Below are positions 3-16,488 of a DNA stretch of 33,651 bases, piece by piece (position 1 is the stretch's first letter; each line of letters opens with the position of its first letter). The position numbers and the translations under genes were made by a program. The stretch comes from Candidatus Altarchaeum sp. GTDB lineage: Archaea > Altiarchaeota > Altiarchaeia > Altiarchaeales > Altiarchaeaceae. Location: contig JAGWDQ010000101.1 in assembly GCA_018260615.1 (NCBI GenBank), positions 1 to 33,651 of the forward strand, in the 5' to 3' direction. Under the pieces are notes generated by a model that worked only from the letters and a program-made list of their open reading frames with translations, searched no databases and was not told the origin of the DNA.

Positions 3-618
3 GAAACAATAATTAAAATTTTGTCACTTTCCCGTAATATGCCCGCCATAAACATAGATGAAGGAGATACAATAAAAAATAGAGGGAAAAATGAAAATTT
101 CGATAAGTTATGTAATCAGTTAAAAACTCTTAATGAACCAAAAATTACAGATATTATTTTCCATTTGTTAGATTGGTCTGGTGAAGCAAGAAAAAATCCC
201 GTGGATTTTATAATTCAGACGAAGCAAAAAACTTTACAAGATGGGAAATTCCATAATTTTTCTATGCCCCCGGATGATAGTTATTCTCCTCGTGTTGGTG
301 TTACTTACATTTCATTAAACTCTGATGATTCGGAAGAATTAAAAAAAAGATTGCTGACTTTATGCCAAGTAAGGAAATATAAAAGCAAAGGAGATGTTTG
401 GATTGGTTTTGGAAGTTTAAAGGGGAGTGATGAAATGATAGATGCTGTTGTGTTCAGTAATCACAAATGGGAGTGTGATCAAGAATTAGAACAGTTATCA
501 AAAGTCATGTTAGGGGGGAAAAGGACAAGGGAGACAAATAAGAATCGAGAAAAAGATTGGTAGAAACGAAAAGTGTTCTTGCGAAAGTAGACTAAAATAT
601 AAAAAGTGTTGCGGGTAG
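3..618 (+). pseudogene. C-terminal part of a SEC-C motif protein, +1 frameshift at the G6 run 513-518 (5' end outside window)
   Basis: The frame is open from position 3. Removing one base at G6 joins it to GKGQGRQIRIEKKIGRNEKCSCESRLKYKKCCG* (stop 616-618), a SEC-C motif (canonical GRNDPCPCGSGKKYKKCCG). Confidence 0.7.
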
Positions 619-2782: not shown

Positions 2783-3637
2783 TTATGTTTTACCGTATCC
2801 GATTAGGTGTATAATATCTTGTCTTAACTCCTGATTAAGTATTCCTCTTTCCAAAAATTTTTCTAAAATTTCAGCATCTACATCGGAGCCGGATTTCATA
2901 ACATATTTTCTTAAGACATCTTCCTTCATCTTTTCATCAATGCATGTGGATTTATCATATAAGTCCAAAATTTCCATAACCTTGTCCCTATTAGATTTGT
3001 CATCTGCTTCACTTAATTGCAGAAACGCTTTATATAAAATTTGTTGCGGAATATTGCTGAAATTTTCTCTTATGATTTTTACAACTTCATCACTTGGATA
3101 TTCGCAAATTTTTGAAAGAACTTCATTTCTAAAATTCGCATCAAATTTATCAAAATTTTCCCTCAAAACCCATACAATAATTTCCTGCACTCCTTTATCA
3201 TTTGTATTTAGAGATTGTGTTATTATATCGTTACGAAGCGATGCAGGAATTAAATTAAAATATGTTCTTAATACCTCAATTGCCAGATTGATATTTTTAT
3301 CTGCAACATGTTTTAAAATTTGCTCTCTTAATTCCTTTGAGACATCTTTAAAATATTCCGAAAAGGCATATTCTGCAATTTCCTGTTCTTTTTCATTTTT
3401 GCTTTTTATGTATTTTTTTAGCAATTTTTCCCTTTCATTCTTTTCTAAATTTAAAAAATTTTTCCCAAATGTACCTAATGTGTCTTCATCCATCCATTTT
3501 TTGCTCATCCATACAAGCAAAATTATTGCACTACTAAAAAGAATTAAAAAAAGCGTTAGAGAAGGGATATTTGTCTGTTGGTCTACCTCTCCTCCCCATC
3601 CTTCAAGTAGTATGTCTGCTATTATTGTTGCTAACAT
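2783..3637 (-). CDS. single-pass membrane protein with degenerate 31-35-aa alpha-helical repeats
   Basis: TM-like IPSLTLFLILFSSAIILLVWM, then YFKDVSKELREQIL / YFNLIPASLRNDII / NFDKFDANFRNEVL / NFSNIPQQIL units. Confidence 0.75.
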   Translation of the reverse strand: MLATIIADILLEGWGGEVDQQTNIPSLTLFLILFSSAIILLVWMSKKWMDEDTLGTFGKNFLNLEKNEREKLLKKYIKSKNEKEQEIAEYAFSEYFKDVSKELREQILKHVADKNINLAIEVLRTYFNLIPASLRNDIITQSLNTNDKGVQEIIVWVLRENFDKFDANFRNEVLSKICEYPSDEVVKIIRENFSNIPQQILYKAFLQLSEADDKSNRDKVMEILDLYDKSTCIDEKMKEDVLRKYVMKSGSDVDAEILEKFLERGILNQELRQDIIHLIGYGKT

Positions 3638-8576: not shown

Positions 8577-9461
8577 TTAAATTTCATCTTCAAAAATTTC
8601 CCTCATAATTTTAATTAAATTTCCCTCTGTTATCTCATCAAACAGCGGAATTTCAGCAACATCGTTATGCAAATTTTTTATTTTTTCAACATACTGTCTT
8701 TGAATTTCTGCCTTTTTCAGCATAAATTTACTGTCGCAGACATCCTTCCGGATAACATTGTTGATAATAACTTTCTGAACTGATATATCGTGCTCTTTAA
8801 ACTCGCCCAGCAGTTTTTCCGTCTGATAAACAGCCAGATTTTCAGGAATACATACAGCCATAAGACAGACCTCTTCTTTAAGAAATTTAATGATTTGCTC
8901 CGAAAGGACTTTCCATTCGTCAATGATTTCATATATGGACTTCGCTGAATTTCTTTTGTAAAATTTTGTGTAAACCTTTGTTGCGAAATTTAAATGGGTG
9001 ATAAATTTTGACGGCATAGAAAGCAGTTTTAATGTATTTCCCATCGGTGCCGTATCCCATACAACAATGTCAAATTTTTTACTTTTCACGAGCTCCATTA
9101 TATGAGCAAGCATAAATTCTTCCTCAATTCCGGGAGCGGTTCCTATGTACTCAACGATGCTGTAATCAACATCTGCGAAGGCGCGCATAACCGCATAAAT
9201 GTCATTTCCGAATTTTTCTTTCCATCGCTTTATGATTTCATCGCCTGAAATTTCAGTTCCGTAAAGATTTTCTTTGATGTCTGAAATTTTATCGGATAAA
9301 TTTATGCCGAATATGTTGGATAAAGACGGCGCGGGGTCTGTTGAAAGAAGTAATGTTTTCTTTCCTTTTGAAGCAAAGTAGAGTGCTATTGCTGCTGATA
9401 TTGTGCTTTTTCCGACACCGCCTTTTCCGCTGAGCATTAGGACGTTATAATTTTTACTCAT
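8577..9461 (-). CDS. arsA: ArsA/GET3 (TRC40) family ATPase, single-domain
   Basis: SGKGGVGKST deviant Walker A, STDPAPSLS switch I, PGIEE, WDTAPMG switch II, QKVIINNV. Confidence 0.93.
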   Translation of the reverse strand: MSKNYNVLMLSGKGGVGKSTISAAIALYFASKGKKTLLLSTDPAPSLSNIFGINLSDKISDIKENLYGTEISGDEIIKRWKEKFGNDIYAVMRAFADVDYSIVEYIGTAPGIEEEFMLAHIMELVKSKKFDIVVWDTAPMGNTLKLLSMPSKFITHLNFATKVYTKFYKRNSAKSIYEIIDEWKVLSEQIIKFLKEEVCLMAVCIPENLAVYQTEKLLGEFKEHDISVQKVIINNVIRKDVCDSKFMLKKAEIQRQYVEKIKNLHNDVAEIPLFDEITEGNLIKIMREIFEDEI

Positions 9462-9534: not shown

Positions 9535-10659
9535 TTATTGTTCGTCTTCATCATCATCCTGGTAATTAAATTCTACTTTGCTCTGTAAAATAATCTCGTC
9601 AAGAATATTTTTTAAATAACCTTGCTTTACCGCGACAATAAAACATTTATGAAGACGGGGAATATTTATTATTTCTTCAATACACTGCATGTAACGATCA
9701 ACAACGGCTTTGACTGAATATAGGCGGATAGCGTTGTTTCGTATGCCTTCAACTAAATTTTTCTCAGAATCTTCCGATTTAACAACAAATGCAATAGGAT
9801 ATCTGTGGATTTTATCAATATCAAGAAAATACTTTTTTACATCCAGTGTTTCGGTTACCTGAAAAAATCGTCCGAGCGGCTTCATGACAAAATCAATACC
9901 TCCGTCGTTTGCATTTGTTCTTCCTGTTTTGTAAAGAGTTAAATTTTCTTTTTGTAGTTTATTAATTTTGAATCCCCAGTATATTTTTTGATTGTGATAG
10001 TAATATTTCAAAATAGAGTAGCTAACGATTTCAAATAATCTTGCGTCTACATTTGGTGCAAGTAATCCGAGGATAAAATTTTCAACATCCTTAGGATTTT
10101 TACTTTGTATTTCCTGTAATTCAAGACAAGTTTGAACAAATTGCTCAAACGCTGCCTTTTTTGTTTTCGCGTATTCTCCTATTATTTCAATTATCGCTTT
10201 CGCAATATTGTATGTTTTACCGGCGACTTTGATTTTTATTAAATTTTCGTTAATCCAGTATTTGTTTGTCTCCAGGTTTCTTAAAATCGGAGTATATTCG
10301 GAACTCGGAAAAAATTTCTGAAATTCAGAATTCATCCGATTATTAAGTGAGTGGTTTTGCAACCTGGCACCAAAAGGTAATTTTCTTTGCCTCTTGAATA
10401 ACCTGATAAACTCAGCCCCTTTATATTTGGAATAGCTGCCTTTTTTGTCAAAACCTTTTGCTAAATAATCTTCGACAACTACATAGATTGCGTATAAGTT
10501 AGCAAAACTTCCGCGAGCTTTTGCTCCTTTATTTGCAGATTTTGTCTTAATGTTTATGTACTGTAAAATCTGACTTCTATCAAAAACATCAGCACTGGCA
10601 TTGGCAAAGTGTTTTTGTAAAATTTCTTTAATAGTGATTGTAAATTGGTGTTCCTTGAT
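9535..10659 (-). CDS. type II restriction endonuclease, AvaIII/NsiI-like by inference; expected start codon reads ATC
   Basis: The frame is open 99 codons upstream of the tracked start at 10362, back to ATC at 10659-10657 overlapping the MTase stop (TAATC instead of TAATG). GRTNANDGGIDFVMKPLGRFFQVTE is a PD-(D/E)xK-like motif. Adjacent to an MTase. Confidence 0.75.
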   Translation of the reverse strand: MKEHQFTITIKEILQKHFANASADVFDRSQILQYINIKTKSANKGAKARGSFANLYAIYVVVEDYLAKGFDKKGSYSKYKGAEFIRLFKRQRKLPFGARLQNHSLNNRMNSEFQKFFPSSEYTPILRNLETNKYWINENLIKIKVAGKTYNIAKAIIEIIGEYAKTKKAAFEQFVQTCLELQEIQSKNPKDVENFILGLLAPNVDARLFEIVSYSILKYYYHNQKIYWGFKINKLQKENLTLYKTGRTNANDGGIDFVMKPLGRFFQVTETLDVKKYFLDIDKIHRYPIAFVVKSEDSEKNLVEGIRNNAIRLYSVKAVVDRYMQCIEEIINIPRLHKCFIVAVKQGYLKNILDEIILQSKVEFNYQDDDEDEQ

Positions 10660-11528
10660 TATTGATTAAATAAAGCTAATTTTTCTTGTTGTCCGGCTGA
10701 TTGTTCAAAACTTCTTAGCTCTTTGATCAGTTTTTCCCCATTATATTCTATTTGAAGTTCTAGCCTTCTCAGCCCAATTTTTGCATAATCCTCCTGCAAT
10801 TCAATACCAATCGACCTTCTGTCTAATTGTTTTGCTACGTATGAGGTTGTAAAAGTACCCGAAAATGGATCTAAAACCAAATCACCTTTATTGGAACTTG
10901 CTTTAATTATTCTTTCTAGTAAAGCAATGGGTTTTTGTGTAGGATGATTTTCGTATTCGTACATACGATATCTAACTCTTGGGAATTCCCAAACATTGCC
11001 AGGTACTTTTTCGGAATTATAAACTTGCGGGGGATTTTTTCTGTAATCAATTAGTTTTCTGGTTGCCCCGGTTTTTGCTTCTACTAAAATATCATTTGCA
11101 TTAAAAGTGTAATTATCCTCATCTTTTACACAAAACAAAATCGGTTCATATAAAGAGCCATAATATTTTTTCGCCTGCATGCTAGAACTGTCATAATACC
11201 AAACTATTCTTGAAAGAATTTTTATTCTGTTTCTTAAATAAATATCAAAGAATGGCATGAATTGTGTCGAGGTCATTACATAAAAGCTGCCACTATGTTT
11301 TAATTTTTTTATGCAAAGGTCAAGCCATTTATAGCACCAGTTCAAATACTCCTCGTCTTTATCCCACTTATCTTTGTAACCGTTGAAATTTTTTCCTATG
11401 TTGTAGGGAGGATCAGCAAAAATTAAATCAATAGATCCATTGTCAATTGTATCTAAAGCAACAAAGGTATCACCCACTATGATTTTATGCTCTTTATTTC
11501 CTAAATGTTTTAAGTCGGATATTTCCAT
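10659..11528 (-). CDS. yhdJ: beta-class N6-adenine DNA methyltransferase, YhdJ family
   Basis: FADPPYNIGK (motif IV) precedes HPTQKP and VLDPFSGTFTT (motif I). YDSS..QAKKYYGS.YEPIL and VWEFPRVRYRM are characteristic of YhdJ. Confidence 0.92.
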   Translation of the reverse strand: MEISDLKHLGNKEHKIIVGDTFVALDTIDNGSIDLIFADPPYNIGKNFNGYKDKWDKDEEYLNWCYKWLDLCIKKLKHSGSFYVMTSTQFMPFFDIYLRNRIKILSRIVWYYDSSSMQAKKYYGSLYEPILFCVKDEDNYTFNANDILVEAKTGATRKLIDYRKNPPQVYNSEKVPGNVWEFPRVRYRMYEYENHPTQKPIALLERIIKASSNKGDLVLDPFSGTFTTSYVAKQLDRRSIGIELQEDYAKIGLRRLELQIEYNGEKLIKELRSFEQSAGQQEKLALFNQ

Positions 11529-11921
11529 AATTTTATTTCATTAAATTATCAAATGTAATTTTTAAACCTTTGGCAGTTTTCTGAAATCAATCAAAATAAA
11601 TAGGGAAAGCATGCTTTTGGCTCAAAATGTTCCCATACAACAATGTGCAATTTAAACAAATATAAGCAGTATGATTTTTAAATATAAACCCAAGTTTCCC
11701 ACTCACCCGTAAAAGTTTGAGTGTAATTTTTGTTTTTACGAGTAATTAAATTTTAAAATTACCTGTGAATTTTTTAATAGTGGGAATATAAGTATAAATA
11801 TAAATTTTAATAGAAATAAATTAAATTTCAAAATTATCAAATAACATTTTAAATTCAAAATCCCCACCTCCCGGCAATTAATTTATTGTCAGGAAAGATT
11901 GCACGATTGACCAAGGTAATA

Positions 11922-12001
11922 GCTGCTGATATTGTGCTTTTTCCGACACCGCCTTTTCCGCTGAGCATCAGGACATTATAGTTTGGTTTGGTCATACTCA
12001 T
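11922..12001 (-). pseudogene. truncated copy of the arsA 5' end
   Basis: Encodes MSMTKPNYNVLMLSGKGGVGKSTISAA. 11922-11968 is identical over 47 bp to arsA 9391-9437. Confidence 0.93.
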
Positions 12002-12015
12002 CTATCTTTATTTAA

Positions 12016-13167
12016 TCATTTAATTGTTTTCTCATTATTGGTCTCTTCAAAATTTTCAATTTCATTTTTAATTTCTTCATATCTGAGATGAAGCGTTGCA
12101 TGCGTAGTTTTTACTACCTGAATTATTTCTTTCTTTTTGCATTTTTCTCCAATACGCTCGCACGCCAAAAATATAGCTGCTCCGGCGAATCCTGAAGGAC
12201 CCTTTCCTGAATTAATTCCTGTTTTTTTTACAGCTTTAAGTATTCTTTTCAATTCTTCTTTAGCGGCGTTTGAAATCCCGAGTTTTGAAGCATAGAGAGC
12301 AATATAACCGTCTATATTTGTTTTAGGTGGCCTCAGATTCATAGACCTGATCATATTTTTATAACTCCTACCGATTTCTGCTTTTGATATTCCGCTTTTT
12401 TCTGCAATTTCTTCCAGTGATCTTACTTTGTCCGTACTTCTTGTTACATAATGTATTATTGCACCAATCATACTTTTTATACTTATTCTTATAGCAAATC
12501 TCTTATCTACTGCCTGCCTGTATAAACGGGCACAATCTTCCTTTATTGTTTCCCCTAATTCCAGCAAACTGCACATTCTGTCAAGTTCTGGTAAGGCAGA
12601 TGATAAATTTCTATATGTTGAATCACCCATATTTTTAAATCCGCTTATCCATCTGACATATAAAGAAACAATATGTTTATTGGCAGTTTTCAAAAGTAAT
12701 TCATTCATTACATTTTCCGGAAGTTTATTAAATTTATCTGCAAATACATAAGCAATATCCCAATTAACATTATCCTTTTCAGCAAGTTTTAAAAGCAATT
12801 TATGCCTTACATCATCGTCTATTTTATTAAATTTATTATGTGCAGCCACATGAGCAACTTTTGAAGCAGCAGAGTCATTATCTGCCAATTTAAAAAGCAA
12901 ATTCCTGACATTTTCCGGAAGTTTGTCAAAATTATAAGCAATTGCATAAGCAACTCCTCCGGCAGCAGAGTCGTTTTCTGCTAATCTTAAAAGCAATTCA
13001 TTCCTCACATTTTCAGGAATGGCTTCAAATTTATCTGCAACCACATCGGCAACTTCTTTAACAACATCGTCTTTTTCAGCAAGTTTTAAAAGTTCTTCGT
13101 ATGCTTTATTTTCCAAAAGATACTTAATTTTCTCTAAATTTTTAACTATTATGTTGTTCTGTTTCAT
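12016..13167 (-). CDS. tfb: alpha-helical repeat-TFB core fusion protein (copy B)
   Basis: ~4.5 N-terminal repeats, then RW...YRNLSSALPELDRM, RSLEEIA, EIGRSYK, SGKGPSG, TLHLRYEEI. No CxxC Zn ribbon. Confidence 0.88.
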   Translation of the reverse strand: MKQNNIIVKNLEKIKYLLENKAYEELLKLAEKDDVVKEVADVVADKFEAIPENVRNELLLRLAENDSAAGGVAYAIAYNFDKLPENVRNLLFKLADNDSAASKVAHVAAHNKFNKIDDDVRHKLLLKLAEKDNVNWDIAYVFADKFNKLPENVMNELLLKTANKHIVSLYVRWISGFKNMGDSTYRNLSSALPELDRMCSLLELGETIKEDCARLYRQAVDKRFAIRISIKSMIGAIIHYVTRSTDKVRSLEEIAEKSGISKAEIGRSYKNMIRSMNLRPPKTNIDGYIALYASKLGISNAAKEELKRILKAVKKTGINSGKGPSGFAGAAIFLACERIGEKCKKKEIIQVVKTTHATLHLRYEEIKNEIENFEETNNEKTIK

Positions 13168-13219
13168 TTTGTCTTATTTTCCTTATATTATTATAAAAAA
13201 CAAAAATTTTAAATTTTTA

Positions 13220-13284
13220 ATTGTGCTTTTTCCGACACAGTATTTTCCGCTGAGCATTAAAACATTGTAGTTTGGTTCATTCAT
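13220..13284 (-). pseudogene. second, more decayed copy of the arsA 5' end
   Basis: Encodes MNEPNYNVLMLSGKYCVGKSTI (Walker A GG changed to YC), starting 11 bp after the repeat-protein stop. Confidence 0.88.
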
Positions 13285-13294
13285 TTTTGCTGTT

Positions 13295-15160
13295 TCATAT
13301 TTTCTGTTTCATATAATCATCATAACATTTTTTTATTTGCGGGTTTGAAAGCAGTTCGTTTCTAACATTTTCATGAATGGCTTCAAAATTTTTTGCAACT
13401 ATTGTAGCAACCCAGTAAGCAACAGCAACACTATCTTTTTTGGCAAGATTCAAAAGCAAATCATTTCTTACATTCTCTGATATGACTTTAAAATTTTTTG
13501 CAAGTGCACTGGCAACCCTCCATGCCACATTAAGATATCTGAGTTTTAAAAGCAGTTCATTTCTTACATTCTCAGGAATGGCTTTAAAATTTTCTTCAAC
13601 TGCACGGGCAACATTTTCAGCAGCAACACCTTTTTCAGCAAGCTTTAAAAGCAGCTCATTTCTTACATTTTCAGAAATGGCTTCAAAATTTTCTTCAACT
13701 GCACGGGCAATTGCTTTGGCAGCACTCTCTTTTTCAGCAAGCTTTAAAAGCAGCTCATTCCTTATGTTTTTGGGAAATTGAGCAAAATTATTTATAGCTA
13801 CTTTGGCAATTTCTTCAGCAGCGCGATCTTTTTCAGCAAGCTTTAAAAGCAGTTCATTCCTTATGTTATCGGGAAATTTATTAAATTTATCTGCAACTAT
13901 TTTAGCAATCCTCCAGGCAACACCCTTTTTTTCAGCAAGCTTTAAAAGCAATTCAATATTTACCTCATCGGGAAGTTTATCAAGAACTATTCTAACAGTT
14001 CTCCCGGTAACTCCCCTCTTTTCCGCAAGTTTTAAAATCAACTCTTTTCTTACATCCTCACGAAATTTATCAAAATTATGTTCAAAGACATCAACAATAT
14101 CTCCTGTAGCCCTGTCATTATCGGCAAGTTTTAAAAGTAATTCGTTCCTTACATCATCAGGAAAGGTATCTAATTTATTTACAAATATTTTGACCATCTC
14201 TTCAGCTGCACTCTCTTTTTCAGCAAGTTTTAAAAGCAGTTCATTCCTTATATTTTCAGGAAATTGAGCAAAATTATATGCAACTGTACAGGCAACTCTC
14301 CAGGCAGCACTATCCTTCCCGGCAAGTTTTAAAAGCAGTTCATTCCTTACTTCCCCGGGAAATTTATAAAATTTGTCTGCAAGTACCGGAGCAATTGCTT
14401 TGGCAGCAGAATCTTTGTCTGCTAATTTTAAAGGTAAATTTTGTATATTTTCAGGAAGATCATAAAAATTATCTGCAACCGCGTGAGTAACCCAGTAAAC
14501 GGACTTATCTTTTTCGGCAAGTTTTAAAAGTAATTCGTTCCTTACACTTTCTGAAATGGCTTTAAAATTATCTGCAACCGCGTGAGCAATTCCTTCAGCC
14601 GCCGAATTTTTATCTGCTAATTTTAAAAGTAATTCGTTCCGTATGTTTTCAGGAATGGCTTCAAAATTTTTAGCAATTACATAAGCAACCTCCCGGGCAG
14701 CACTATCATTTTCGGCAAGTTTTAAAAGTAATTCATTCCGTATGTTTTCAGGAATGGCTTCAAAATTTTTAGCAACTGCAAAAGCAACACTTCCGGCACT
14801 GATGTTTTTTTCAGCGAGCTTAAACAGGATGTCCTGCACATTTTCAGGAAGGTTATCAAAATTTTTTGCAATTGCGAAAGCAACACTTTCAGCGGTTGTA
14901 TTTTTTTCAGCAAGTTTAAACAATATATCCTGCACATTTTCCGGAAGGTCATCAAAATTTTTTGCAATTGCATAAGCAACACTTCCCGCAGCAATGTCTT
15001 TTTCTGCAAGTTTTAAAAGCAGGTCATTCCTTGTGTTTTTGGGAATTTGAGCAAAATTATCCGCAATAATCCTCGCTGCCTCTTTTGCTGTATTCCCTTT
15101 CTCAGCAAGCTTTAAAAGCAATTCAACATCTGATCTTTCCGGAAAAATTTCAGAGGCCAC
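13295..15160 (-). CDS. alpha-solenoid tandem-repeat protein (~18 repeats of 32-35 aa)
   Basis: Consensus NFEAIPENVRNELLLKLAEKDSAAxxVAxAVAx, ~99-bp DNA period; GTG start; HEAT/ARM-like amphipathic pattern. Confidence 0.9.
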   Translation of the reverse strand: MASEIFPERSDVELLLKLAEKGNTAKEAARIIADNFAQIPKNTRNDLLLKLAEKDIAAGSVAYAIAKNFDDLPENVQDILFKLAEKNTTAESVAFAIAKNFDNLPENVQDILFKLAEKNISAGSVAFAVAKNFEAIPENIRNELLLKLAENDSAAREVAYVIAKNFEAIPENIRNELLLKLADKNSAAEGIAHAVADNFKAISESVRNELLLKLAEKDKSVYWVTHAVADNFYDLPENIQNLPLKLADKDSAAKAIAPVLADKFYKFPGEVRNELLLKLAGKDSAAWRVACTVAYNFAQFPENIRNELLLKLAEKESAAEEMVKIFVNKLDTFPDDVRNELLLKLADNDRATGDIVDVFEHNFDKFREDVRKELILKLAEKRGVTGRTVRIVLDKLPDEVNIELLLKLAEKKGVAWRIAKIVADKFNKFPDNIRNELLLKLAEKDRAAEEIAKVAINNFAQFPKNIRNELLLKLAEKESAAKAIARAVEENFEAISENVRNELLLKLAEKGVAAENVARAVEENFKAIPENVRNELLLKLRYLNVAWRVASALAKNFKVISENVRNDLLLNLAKKDSVAVAYWVATIVAKNFEAIHENVRNELLSNPQIKKCYDDYMKQKI

Positions 15161-15182
15161 ATTATTATGTTTTATTTTGGTT

Positions 15183-16388
15183 TTATTTTGCCTTCTCTTT
15201 TATTTTACTTTTAATCTCGTCATGTCTGCTATGAAGTGTTGAAATCGTAATTCCCACCAAATCCAATAGTTCTTTCTTTGGAAATTCCTCCCTAATCTGT
15301 TCACATGCCAAACTTATAATTGCTCCCGCAACCCCCGAAGGACCTCTACCTGCAGTAATTCCATATTTCTTTGCTTCATTAAGTATTTTCTGGGCTTCTT
15401 CTTCGGCGGTATTTGAAATCCCAAGTTTTGCAGCATAGAAAGAAATGTAATCCTCAATATTTGTTTTTGGTGGTTTCAGGTTCATGGAATTAAGTACATG
15501 TTTATAACTTCTGCCGATTTCCTTTTTTGATCTTCTGCTTTTCTCTGCAATTTCTTCTAATGTTCTTGGTTCGCCTTTATTTCTTGTTACATAAAATATT
15601 ATTGCACCAATTACACTTTCTATACTTCTTCCTTTAACAAAGCCCTTATCCGTCGCCTCCCTGTATAAGTGAGCACATTCCTCTTTTATTGTTTCTCCAA
15701 TGTCTAACAAACTACACATTCTGTCAAGTTCCGGTAATGCAACGGATAAATTTCTAAATATTGTACTATTTGGATATTTAAGTTCGTTTATCCATTTGAC
15801 ATATAAAGAAACAACATCCTTATTCGGAGTTTTCAAAAGTAATTCATTCCTTATATTTTCCGGAAGTTTATTAAATTTATCTGCAACTACATAAGCAATA
15901 TCCCAATTAACATTGTCTTTTTCAGCAAGTTTTAAAAGCAATTTGTTTCTTACATCCTCATCTATTTTATTAAGTTTATTATGTGCAACCACATGAGCAA
16001 CCTTTGAAGCAGTTGAGTCATTTTCTGCCAATTTAAAAAGCAAATTTCTAATGTTTTCAGGAAGTTTGTCAAAATTATAAGCAATTGCCTTTGCAACTCC
16101 TCCTGCCGCAGAGTCATTTTCTGCCAATTTAAAAAGCAGTTCAGTCCTTACATTTTCAGGAATGGCTTCAAATTTATCTGCAACCACATGAGCAATTGCT
16201 TTGGCAGCACCATCTTTTTCAGCGAATTTTAAAAGCAACTCACTCATTACATTTTCAGGAATATTATCAAAATTTTTTGCAATTGCTTCTGCAAGTTCTT
16301 CAGCAAATATCCCTGCAACATCATCCTTATCAGCAAGTTCTAAAAGCAATTCAACATTTACTCTTTCCGGAAAATTTTCAAATACCAT
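15183..16388 (-). CDS. tfb: alpha-helical repeat-TFB core fusion protein (copy A)
   Basis: ~5.5 repeats, then KW...FRNLSVALPELDRM, KGRSIESV, PRTLEEIA, KKEIGRSYK, TAGRGPSG. No Zn ribbon. Confidence 0.9.
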   Translation of the reverse strand: MVFENFPERVNVELLLELADKDDVAGIFAEELAEAIAKNFDNIPENVMSELLLKFAEKDGAAKAIAHVVADKFEAIPENVRTELLFKLAENDSAAGGVAKAIAYNFDKLPENIRNLLFKLAENDSTASKVAHVVAHNKLNKIDEDVRNKLLLKLAEKDNVNWDIAYVVADKFNKLPENIRNELLLKTPNKDVVSLYVKWINELKYPNSTIFRNLSVALPELDRMCSLLDIGETIKEECAHLYREATDKGFVKGRSIESVIGAIIFYVTRNKGEPRTLEEIAEKSRRSKKEIGRSYKHVLNSMNLKPPKTNIEDYISFYAAKLGISNTAEEEAQKILNEAKKYGITAGRGPSGVAGAIISLACEQIREEFPKKELLDLVGITISTLHSRHDEIKSKIKEKAK

Positions 16389-16488
16389 TTTATTATGTTT
16401 TATTTTATCAGATAAATTTAAAATAAATTTATAAAAAACAAATTAAATTTAAACTTTATCTAATTATCTTTTTAATTCAAAATTTAAA

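Follow-up and report, generated by a model that had tools for sequence, protein, structure and literature searches.

Fusions of a HEAT-like repeat arm to a ribbon-less TFB core in Altiarchaeum: candidate gated competitors of archaeal transcription initiation

TFB in archaea, like TFIIB in eukaryotes, is the universal bridge from the TBP-promoter complex to RNA polymerase (RNAP), and a locus of Candidatus Altarchaeum sp., an uncultivated archaeon of groundwater (genus Altiarchaeum below), raises the question of what such a factor does when only the promoter end of the bridge is kept and a repeat arm stands in place of the polymerase end. The locus lies in a window of 33,651 nucleotides (nt), the whole stretch of DNA analysed (contig JAGWDQ010000101.1), where three co-oriented genes on the minus strand, here named FUS1, MID and FUS2, have in common a two-helix repeat of 33 amino acids (aa) (Table 1). 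FUS1 and FUS2 join this repeat to a TFB core, and MID consists of the repeat. The combination of repeat arm and TFB core is undescribed: Pfam, NCBIfam and the searchable literature yielded no description of it, and no literature linking Altiarchaeum with TFB variants was found. A related protein of A. hamiconexum MSI_BF bears the UniRef label transcription initiation factor.

Architecture of the fusion genes

A hidden Markov model (HMM) of the repeat unit, built from MID, recovers a period of 32-34 aa in the three proteins, with 18 full units and a stub in MID, six units in FUS1 and five in FUS2; an earlier note on this DNA had claimed a repeat shared by the three genes and a middle gene of about 18 repeats and nothing else, and the open reading frames (ORFs) and unit counts agree with it. 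The two outer genes also carry the Pfam TFIIB repeat PF00382 twice each (E 7e-29 in FUS1, 3e-24 in FUS2), and they align with the NCBIfam TFB model PRK00423, which has 312 positions, over positions 101-307 (FUS1, E 9e-51) and 106-306 (FUS2, E 3e-44). Since positions 1-100 of this model are left unmatched, the Zn ribbon, the B-reader and most of the B-linker have no counterpart in the fusions. No cysteine occurs in the N-terminal halves of FUS1 and FUS2, and a genome-wide scan with the Zn ribbon family PF08271 matched the TFBs on contigs C98 and C109 and nothing in the window. These results uphold the description, given in the same note, of two genes made of repeats and both cyclin folds and devoid of Zn ribbon and B-reader. 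Neither the P-loop NTPase domain of STAND/nSTAND3 proteins (PF20720) nor the Pfam HEAT family was matched in FUS1, MID or FUS2. Partial Pfam matches of MID (Rep_fac_C, DUF7070, FliG_M and others) were dismissed as family assignments, being single-helix matches multiplied by the repeats.

The genome holds four TFB-type genes, namely the two fusions, a gene of 505 aa on C109 (1204-2721, minus strand) and a divergent one of 364 aa on C98 with a canonical Zn ribbon. The C109 gene is kept in the three other Altiarchaeum species searched, with a ratio of nonsynonymous to synonymous divergence (dN/dS) of 0.08-0.12 in its core, and is for these reasons likely the housekeeping factor. DNA homology between FUS1 and the resident full-length TFB sets in exactly at the RNL codon and continues at 91% nucleotide identity. 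The class consensus before the TFB core is LYRLRKWQRRSRMSDS.QRNLSIALPELDRM, including LYRLRKWQRRSRMSDS.QRNL, and the junction reads LYVKWINELKYPNSTIFRNLS in FUS1 and LYVRWISGFKNMGDSTYRNLS in FUS2. What the fusions keep is a remnant of about 20 residues, LY-x-K/R-W ... RNL (LY-V-K/R-W ... RNL), which blends into the expected helix B of the last repeat; the conserved basic RSRMSDS segment of the linker has been replaced. The B-linker that had been reported in both fusions is present, then, as its last ~20 residues in a degenerate form, and the remainder of it is gone.

An AlphaFold2 (AF2) model of FUS1, made from an alignment of 21 rows, is all-helical (mean pLDDT 82.9, pTM 0.52): every 33-aa unit forms a pair of helices as far as residue 186, and a junction helix (residues 190-202) leads on to the core; owing to the low pTM, the position of the arm relative to the core is undefined. 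The core superposes on the P. woesei TFBc of the TBP-DNA complex (1AIS_B) with Z 22.2 and a root-mean-square deviation of 2.5 Å over 187 residues at 40% identity, and in the sequence alignment to 1D3U/1AIS FUS1 covers residues 7-197 of the P. woesei TFBc chain (E 2e-38). Structural matches of the modelled arm to HEAT-type solenoids (Pds5, symplekin, PP2A-A, alphaRep and CpcE/F among them) have Z 9-11, values that are common among helical repeats, and the likeness shows only a fold class.

At the residue level the FUS1 core is close to that of the resident TFB (85% identity) and departs at 2 of the core columns that are invariant among 12 canonical TFBs. The arginine aligned with R169 of human TFIIB, which we take to be a TBP-contact residue, is retained as R or K in the fusions. 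The C-terminal helix-turn-helix (HTH) helix is present as well, its canonical TIRNRY reading TLHSRH or TLHLRY, and TLDLRY in MSI_BF. The arms are acidic (pI 4.9-5.9) and the cores basic (pI 9-9.5), a division that suits an arm that binds protein and a core that binds DNA; a TALE-like, DNA-binding reading of the 33-aa repeat was dismissed on account of the acidic arms. The fusions resemble archaeal TFB and eukaryotic TFIIB (PF08271 followed by two PF00382; 1AIS, 1D3U) in both cyclin repeats and, with the altered motif just given, in a putative C-terminal HTH region, but they differ from them in having no Zn ribbon or B-reader, a degenerate B-linker tail and, in N-terminal position, a predicted HEAT-like solenoid.

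Upstream of FUS1, in the AT-rich divergent intergenic region, sequence comparison reveals the motif TTGTTTTTTATAA; it recurs before the MSI_BF fusion gene and, at about 13203-13215, ~36 nt before the start of FUS2. The region is a candidate TATA-containing promoter.

The repeat arm and a possible gated competitor

The repeat family of the arm is found elsewhere in the same genome and well beyond it. On contig C99 (30386-34498) the unit HMM matches two genes in tandem, at the C-terminus of each, and both encode an NTPase domain of the nSTAND3 family (E 5e-20 and 1e-22); a third, fragmentary match stands at the end of a contig, and in the congener G002 an nSTAND3-type protein ends in an arm of at least 15 units. 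The two C99 genes also have a common N-terminal domain (FLIY.DILGF...), to which no family was assigned; the second of them runs off the contig end, and a repeat fragment on C2 (15585-16049) is probably its continuation. Matches to the repeat extend to a metagenome-assembled genome (MAG) of the Altiarchaeales (HGW), Theionarchaea, Methanosarcinales, Methanoperedens, Omnitrophica and Brocadiales. Among the matches scanned with Pfam, from which the domain context was read, the arm lies C-terminal to nSTAND3 in an Altiarchaeales match and three metagenome proteins, N-terminal to HATPase_c in a Theionarchaea protein and one metagenome protein, and N-terminal to TIR_2 in one metagenome protein. Many long arm-only matches with repeats near the C-terminus occur among 1.84 billion representative proteins. 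The nSTAND3 domain is the NTPase domain of Avs5, a protein whose C-terminal helical repeats are required for sensing (bioRxiv 10.1101/2025.07.08.663546). Where its place in a protein can be told, the arm thus stands in the sensor position. The fusions share the 33-aa repeat family with these nSTAND3/Avs5-type NTPases; unlike them, FUS1, MID and FUS2 have no NTPase domain, and the arm stands at the N-terminus instead of the C-terminus.

Across the 29 units of the window, helix A (ENVRNELLLKLAEK) is nearly fixed, and the most variable positions (18, 21, 22, 25, 29 and 32) make up one face of helix B. HEAT-like proteins such as alphaRep, the CpcE/F lyase, PP2A-A and symplekin are solenoids of two-helix units of ~31-33 aa, and alphaRep libraries too have their variable positions on a single face of helix B. 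The only sequence match of the repeats among solved structures was 8VD6, a de novo designed repeat protein (PMC12339374), which is uninformative on the natural family and was set aside. The sensor positions of the family, together with the hypervariable helix B face, suggest that the arm binds a protein ligand.

In canonical TFB, recruitment of RNAP depends on contact between the Zn ribbon and the dock of the enzyme, placement of the template strand is the task of the B-reader and B-linker, and the second cyclin repeat reads the B recognition element (BRE) (PMC7289017, PMC6101591); B-reader and B-linker are needed for the loading and stabilisation of template DNA (PMC7289017). In the fusions the RNAP-engaging parts, that is the Zn ribbon, the B-reader and most of the B-linker, have been swapped for a predicted HEAT-like alpha-solenoid of 5-6 units, and on established TFB biology a protein without the ribbon would be unable to recruit RNAP. 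It is proposed, tentatively, that FUS1 and FUS2 are TFB paralogues which bind the TBP-promoter complex, fail to recruit RNAP, and so compete with productive TFB under the control of a ligand-binding arm. The two-cyclin core would dock on TBP-promoter DNA, as its TFBc-like fold and the 85% identity with the core of the resident TFB lead us to infer; the TBP-promoter complexes would then be occupied or sequestered unproductively, which would make the fusion a competitive anti-TFB with a repressive outcome, and a protein ligand of the arm would switch, tether or titrate the core. Regulated availability of the factor and dominant-negative blocking of promoters, the two mechanisms suggested in the earlier note, seem the most reasonable ones. 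MID, whose GTG start codon lies 22 nt past the FUS1 stop, would be co-transcribed with FUS1 and would most likely rival the fusions for their ligand, acting as buffer or sponge. The idea that the 621-aa solenoid is instead a binding partner of the fusions found nothing in its favour, MID being a degenerate, core-less fusion paralogue; when a complex between MID and the arm of FUS1 was predicted, the tool returned a score of 0.00 and no verdict, which is evidence neither way.

The intact core and the presence of the fusions' own promoter-like motif could also be taken to mean that the fusions are productive alternative initiation factors, in which the arm replaces the Zn ribbon, binds RNAP (or TFE) and serves a special set of promoters. 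Archaeal TFB paralogues are indeed used for promoter choice (PMC7289017), and the model shows a rigid, helical arm as far as the junction helix. This explanation is nonetheless considered unlikely, as the B-reader and B-linker are gone, RSRMSDS included, the arm family is otherwise found only in sensor positions of conflict or signalling proteins and never with transcription machinery, and three congeneric species do without the gene.

A further possibility, to which little probability is assigned, is suggested by the company that the arm keeps: the core may be an integrated decoy for viral factors directed against TFB or TBP, or a ligand-triggered effector of transcription shutoff of the abortive-infection type; on either view the arm would serve to sense the pathogen. 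In one form of this immune explanation, itself rather improbable, the arm would detect a protein of a virus or mobile element and unleash or withhold a core that blocks initiation at TBP-bound promoters, with MID as a sponge that sets the threshold. The fusions have their arm in common with nSTAND3 (Avs5-type) NTPases encoded in the same genome, with which they might act in concert, and in the arm-TIR proteins an effector occupies the same C-terminal slot. The hypervariable face of helix B is also in keeping with it. The cluster, however, contains neither an NTPase nor another effector, the nSTAND3 genes lie on a different contig, and the arm is only ~50-55% identical to the STAND arms; PADLOC gave no significant match (there were weak OloA-like and PDC-S73-like ones, which allow no assignment), and no relatives were found in the viral contigs scanned.

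Distribution, history and selection of the locus

In a word-indexed search of 5.8 billion proteins with residues 1-230 of FUS1 as query, the matches that also have PF00382 are Altiarchaeum proteins only: a 401-aa orthologue (93% identical), a 383-aa orthologue of FUS2, a 412-aa protein from the MSI_BF groundwater biofilm assembly and a partial protein from the HGW Altiarchaeales MAG. A full HMMER pass with the whole of FUS1 over the 1.84 billion representative proteins yielded a single cluster that matches both halves, the remaining matches covering the arm alone or the core alone. Among 61 genomes of the class the fusion is present in one, the source genome, and it is confined to part of the genus Altiarchaeum. 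Long TFBs of 478-821 aa in the representative library were dismissed as instances of the same phenomenon, since the Zn ribbon is retained in all of them and inteins or extensions account for their size. The order FUS1-MID-FUS2 recurs on a 62-kb contig from JGI and an 18-kb contig from ENA, and a single-fusion form of the locus is found in two NCBI assemblies. Altogether the fusion has been assembled independently in at least five datasets from different sites, with intact ORFs, which makes chimerism very unlikely.

The form of the locus in A. hamiconexum MSI_BF is the simplest one, a single fusion gene with arsA directly downstream. In the window and on the JGI and ENA contigs, FUS1, MID and FUS2 are followed first by a fragment of arsA, next by a methyltransferase and its partner ORF, and last by the intact arsA. 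The junction from the FUS2 stop to arsA is orthologous to the fusion-arsA junction of MSI_BF, and FUS2 is the orthologue of the single MSI_BF fusion gene. In the ancestral state, a single fusion gene stood immediately upstream of arsA, and it was amplified in the lineage of the window. Two relics of the arsA 5' end, the second one decayed, stand directly after the stops of FUS2 and MID (Table 1). The arsA 5' end is a hotspot of insertion and duplication, where a short copy of the gene start is left by each event. The methyltransferase belongs to PF01555 (N6_N4_Mtase), as read on an orthologous contig; together with its partner ORF it is not at the corresponding place in MSI_BF and is found in this lineage only.

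MID and FUS1 have each kept a trace of their descent. The leader of MID and its GTG start align with the leader and ATG of FUS1 and of the MSI_BF gene, and this homology identifies MID as a copy of the fusion without its former core; its orthologues of 621, 654 and 687 aa differ by whole units of 33 aa and are otherwise ~97% identical. In a tree of the cores, FUS2 and the MSI_BF gene share a long branch (100/100), and FUS1 lies among the full-length TFBs of the genus. Synonymous divergence (dS) in the core is 0.26 between FUS1 and the genome's own TFB and 0.67 between FUS1 and FUS2; from the own TFB to its orthologues it is 0.57-0.62 for two congeneric species and 0.31 for the third (G001), by which measure the FUS1 core is just marginally nearer to the own TFB than the G001 orthologue is. 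The N-terminus of FUS1 is ancestral, beginning M..ENFPER as in MSI_BF, and an ancestral arm with a near-resident core makes FUS1 a mosaic gene whose core was lately overwritten from the housekeeping TFB. Such a renewal fits a need to match the contacts of the resident factor, and could also be neutral gene conversion. Degenerate repeats downstream of the G002 TFB (C129, 2086-2690) were not used in tracing the origin of the fusion, for they lie beside a run of N; they are an artefact of scaffolding or else a trace left when arm and TFB were joined.

Within the genus the locus is variable, and it is a variable insertion site which also bears a restriction-modification (R-M) cassette. This is one more feature that the immune explanation could claim for itself, together with the whole-repeat copy-number polymorphism of MID; the dN/dS of the arm, which stays below 1, speaks against it. 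The same history invites the thought that the genes are an evolutionary by-product, domain-shuffled duplicates at a recombination hotspot that are tolerated with little or no function and decay slowly. The serial duplication with its arsA relics, the loss of the MID core, relaxed constraint, an internal deletion in the HGW gene, the replacement of invariant TFB residues in FUS2 and MSI_BF and the congeners without the gene would all be expected of such remains. They are less easily reconciled with the open frames seen in all populations sampled, the conserved start codon and leader, or the retention of the whole architecture by FUS2 and its MSI_BF orthologue across a dS of ~0.25-0.34, and a by-product is accordingly judged doubtful. 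Estimates of dN/dS also speak against decay, being 0.3-0.5 and not ~1: they are 0.3-0.4 in the fusion cores (0.8 in one nearly identical pair with few changes) and 0.4-0.5 in the arms. With the housekeeping TFB core at ~0.1, the fusion genes are maintained under purifying selection that is looser than that on the housekeeping TFB.

Several of these observations, and a few others, weigh against the gated competitor proposed above. The fusion is missing from the arsA locus of three congeneric species, with SHMT standing directly before arsA in G001 and no fusion beside arsA in G002 and G003. In the partial HGW fusion an in-frame deletion joins the last repeat directly to KGRSIES, which takes out the junction and the first cyclin helices. 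FUS2 and the MSI_BF protein deviate at about 15 of the invariant TFB columns, GRSIES having become RISIKS for example, and this older core may have lost or altered its binding to TBP or DNA. The TFB of the genus and the fusions have H (D in MSI_BF) at the arginine position of TIRNRY in the last helix, an arginine presumably involved in BRE recognition, which implies that promoter recognition is unusual throughout. Constraint on the fusions is relaxed 3-4 fold relative to the housekeeping TFB. The inter-domain geometry of the AF2 model, finally, is uncertain (pTM 0.52, junction pLDDT ~60), and a gating mechanism is unreadable from it.

Table 1. Features of the fusion locus and its surroundings in the window.
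Feature	Residues	Position	Strand	Remarks
FUS1		15183-16388	minus	401 aa; 6 repeat units and TFB cyclin core
FUS1 HEAT-like arm	1-189	15822-16388	minus	
FUS1 junction helix	190-210	15759-15821	minus	
FUS1 TFB cyclin core	211-401	15186-15758	minus	
MID		13295-15160	minus	621 aa; repeats only
FUS2		12016-13167	minus	383 aa; 5 repeat units and derived TFB core
FUS2 arm	~1-168	12664-13167	minus	
FUS2 junction	169-189		minus	
FUS2 derived TFB core	190-383	12019-12600	minus	
AT-rich divergent intergenic region		16389-16488		upstream of FUS1; contains the TTGTTTTTTATAA motif (sequence comparison)
Decayed arsA 5' relic		13219-13284	minus	directly after MID stop; 40 nt, 92.5% identity
arsA 5' relic		11921-12001	minus	directly after FUS2 stop; 59 nt, 96.6% identity to intact arsA
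Methyltransferase and unannotated partner ORF		9535-11528	minus	methyltransferase at 10659-11528; insert between arsA relic and intact arsA
Intact arsA/GET3-type ATPase		8577-9461	minus	ancestral neighbour downstream of the fusion gene

Related factors and the resident basal machinery

Sulfolobus TFB3 retains its N-terminal Zn ribbon and has a shortened core that lacks the HTH. Like the fusions it is a non-canonical TFB paralogue, which cannot serve as the sole TFB (PMC7289017, PMC6101591), and it activates transcription in trans (PMC6101591). Its design is opposite to that of the fusions, which lose the RNAP-contacting end and retain the TBP/DNA end; the earlier note had drawn this contrast, and it holds, no described family or other lineage having been found with the combination of repeat arm and TFB core. 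Ribbon-less cores as such are not peculiar to Altiarchaeum. A sister family of the class has, in seven genomes, a conserved TFB core-only paralogue of ~225 aa that also has no Zn ribbon; it differs from the fusions in having no arm, in its ~30% identity and in its locus, where it adjoins an NFACT-like gene in all four cases read (G005:C12, G007:C9, G013:C46 and G009:C92). This paralogue too seems undescribed, and what sets Altiarchaeum apart is the fusion of the arm.

In functional terms the nearest described case is TFS4 of Saccharolobus solfataricus, a paralogue of a basal factor that has turned into a virus-induced global inhibitor of transcription and provides a precedent both for the proposed gated competitor and for the immune explanation (PMC5715097). 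TFS4 differs from the fusions in that it belongs to the TFS/TFIIS family, acts on the secondary channel of RNAP and has no sensor arm. A functional analogy with sigma and anti-sigma factors is also possible, a partner module setting the availability of the factor; there is no homology between the two systems, and in the present case it is the fusion factor itself that has no polymerase-binding part.

The interest of the fusions is that they are a natural, selected variant of TFB in which the promoter end of the bridge alone is combined with a presumably protein-binding arm of the sensor type, and with it a ready-made experiment on the blocking or gating of archaeal initiation at the TBP-TFB step. 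To our knowledge few global repressors are known in archaea. The common arm ties basal transcription to NLR-like STAND proteins, and the locus records how such architectures arise, by tandem amplification at an insertion hotspot, domain loss and gene conversion from a housekeeping paralogue. Altiarchaeum is an abundant primary producer of the subsurface with known lytic viruses; were the immune explanation true, this would be the first immune module with a dominant-negative basal transcription factor as its effector.

Elsewhere in the window, an ORF of 284 aa (2783-3637, minus strand) with an N-terminal hydrophobic segment shows a weak resemblance to MID (28% in an uncorrected BLASTP comparison), and the unit HMM has no significant match in it. 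The resident basal factors have peculiarities of their own. In the TFB on C109 the Zn ribbon is interrupted by an insert of ~215 aa between MRCPEC and CSNCG. This insert is also kept in the genomes of the three other Altiarchaeum species searched (proteins of 500-513 aa), and its start bears a loose resemblance to an FxWDDVPG module. Two TBPs of 482 and 317 aa (C9, 319-1767; C84, 811-1764) both have long N-terminal extensions. From the TFB insert and the TBP extensions it follows that all basal initiation factors of the organism are decorated. The TBP extensions contain F(E/D)W(N/D)(N/D)(I/V)PGKD modules.

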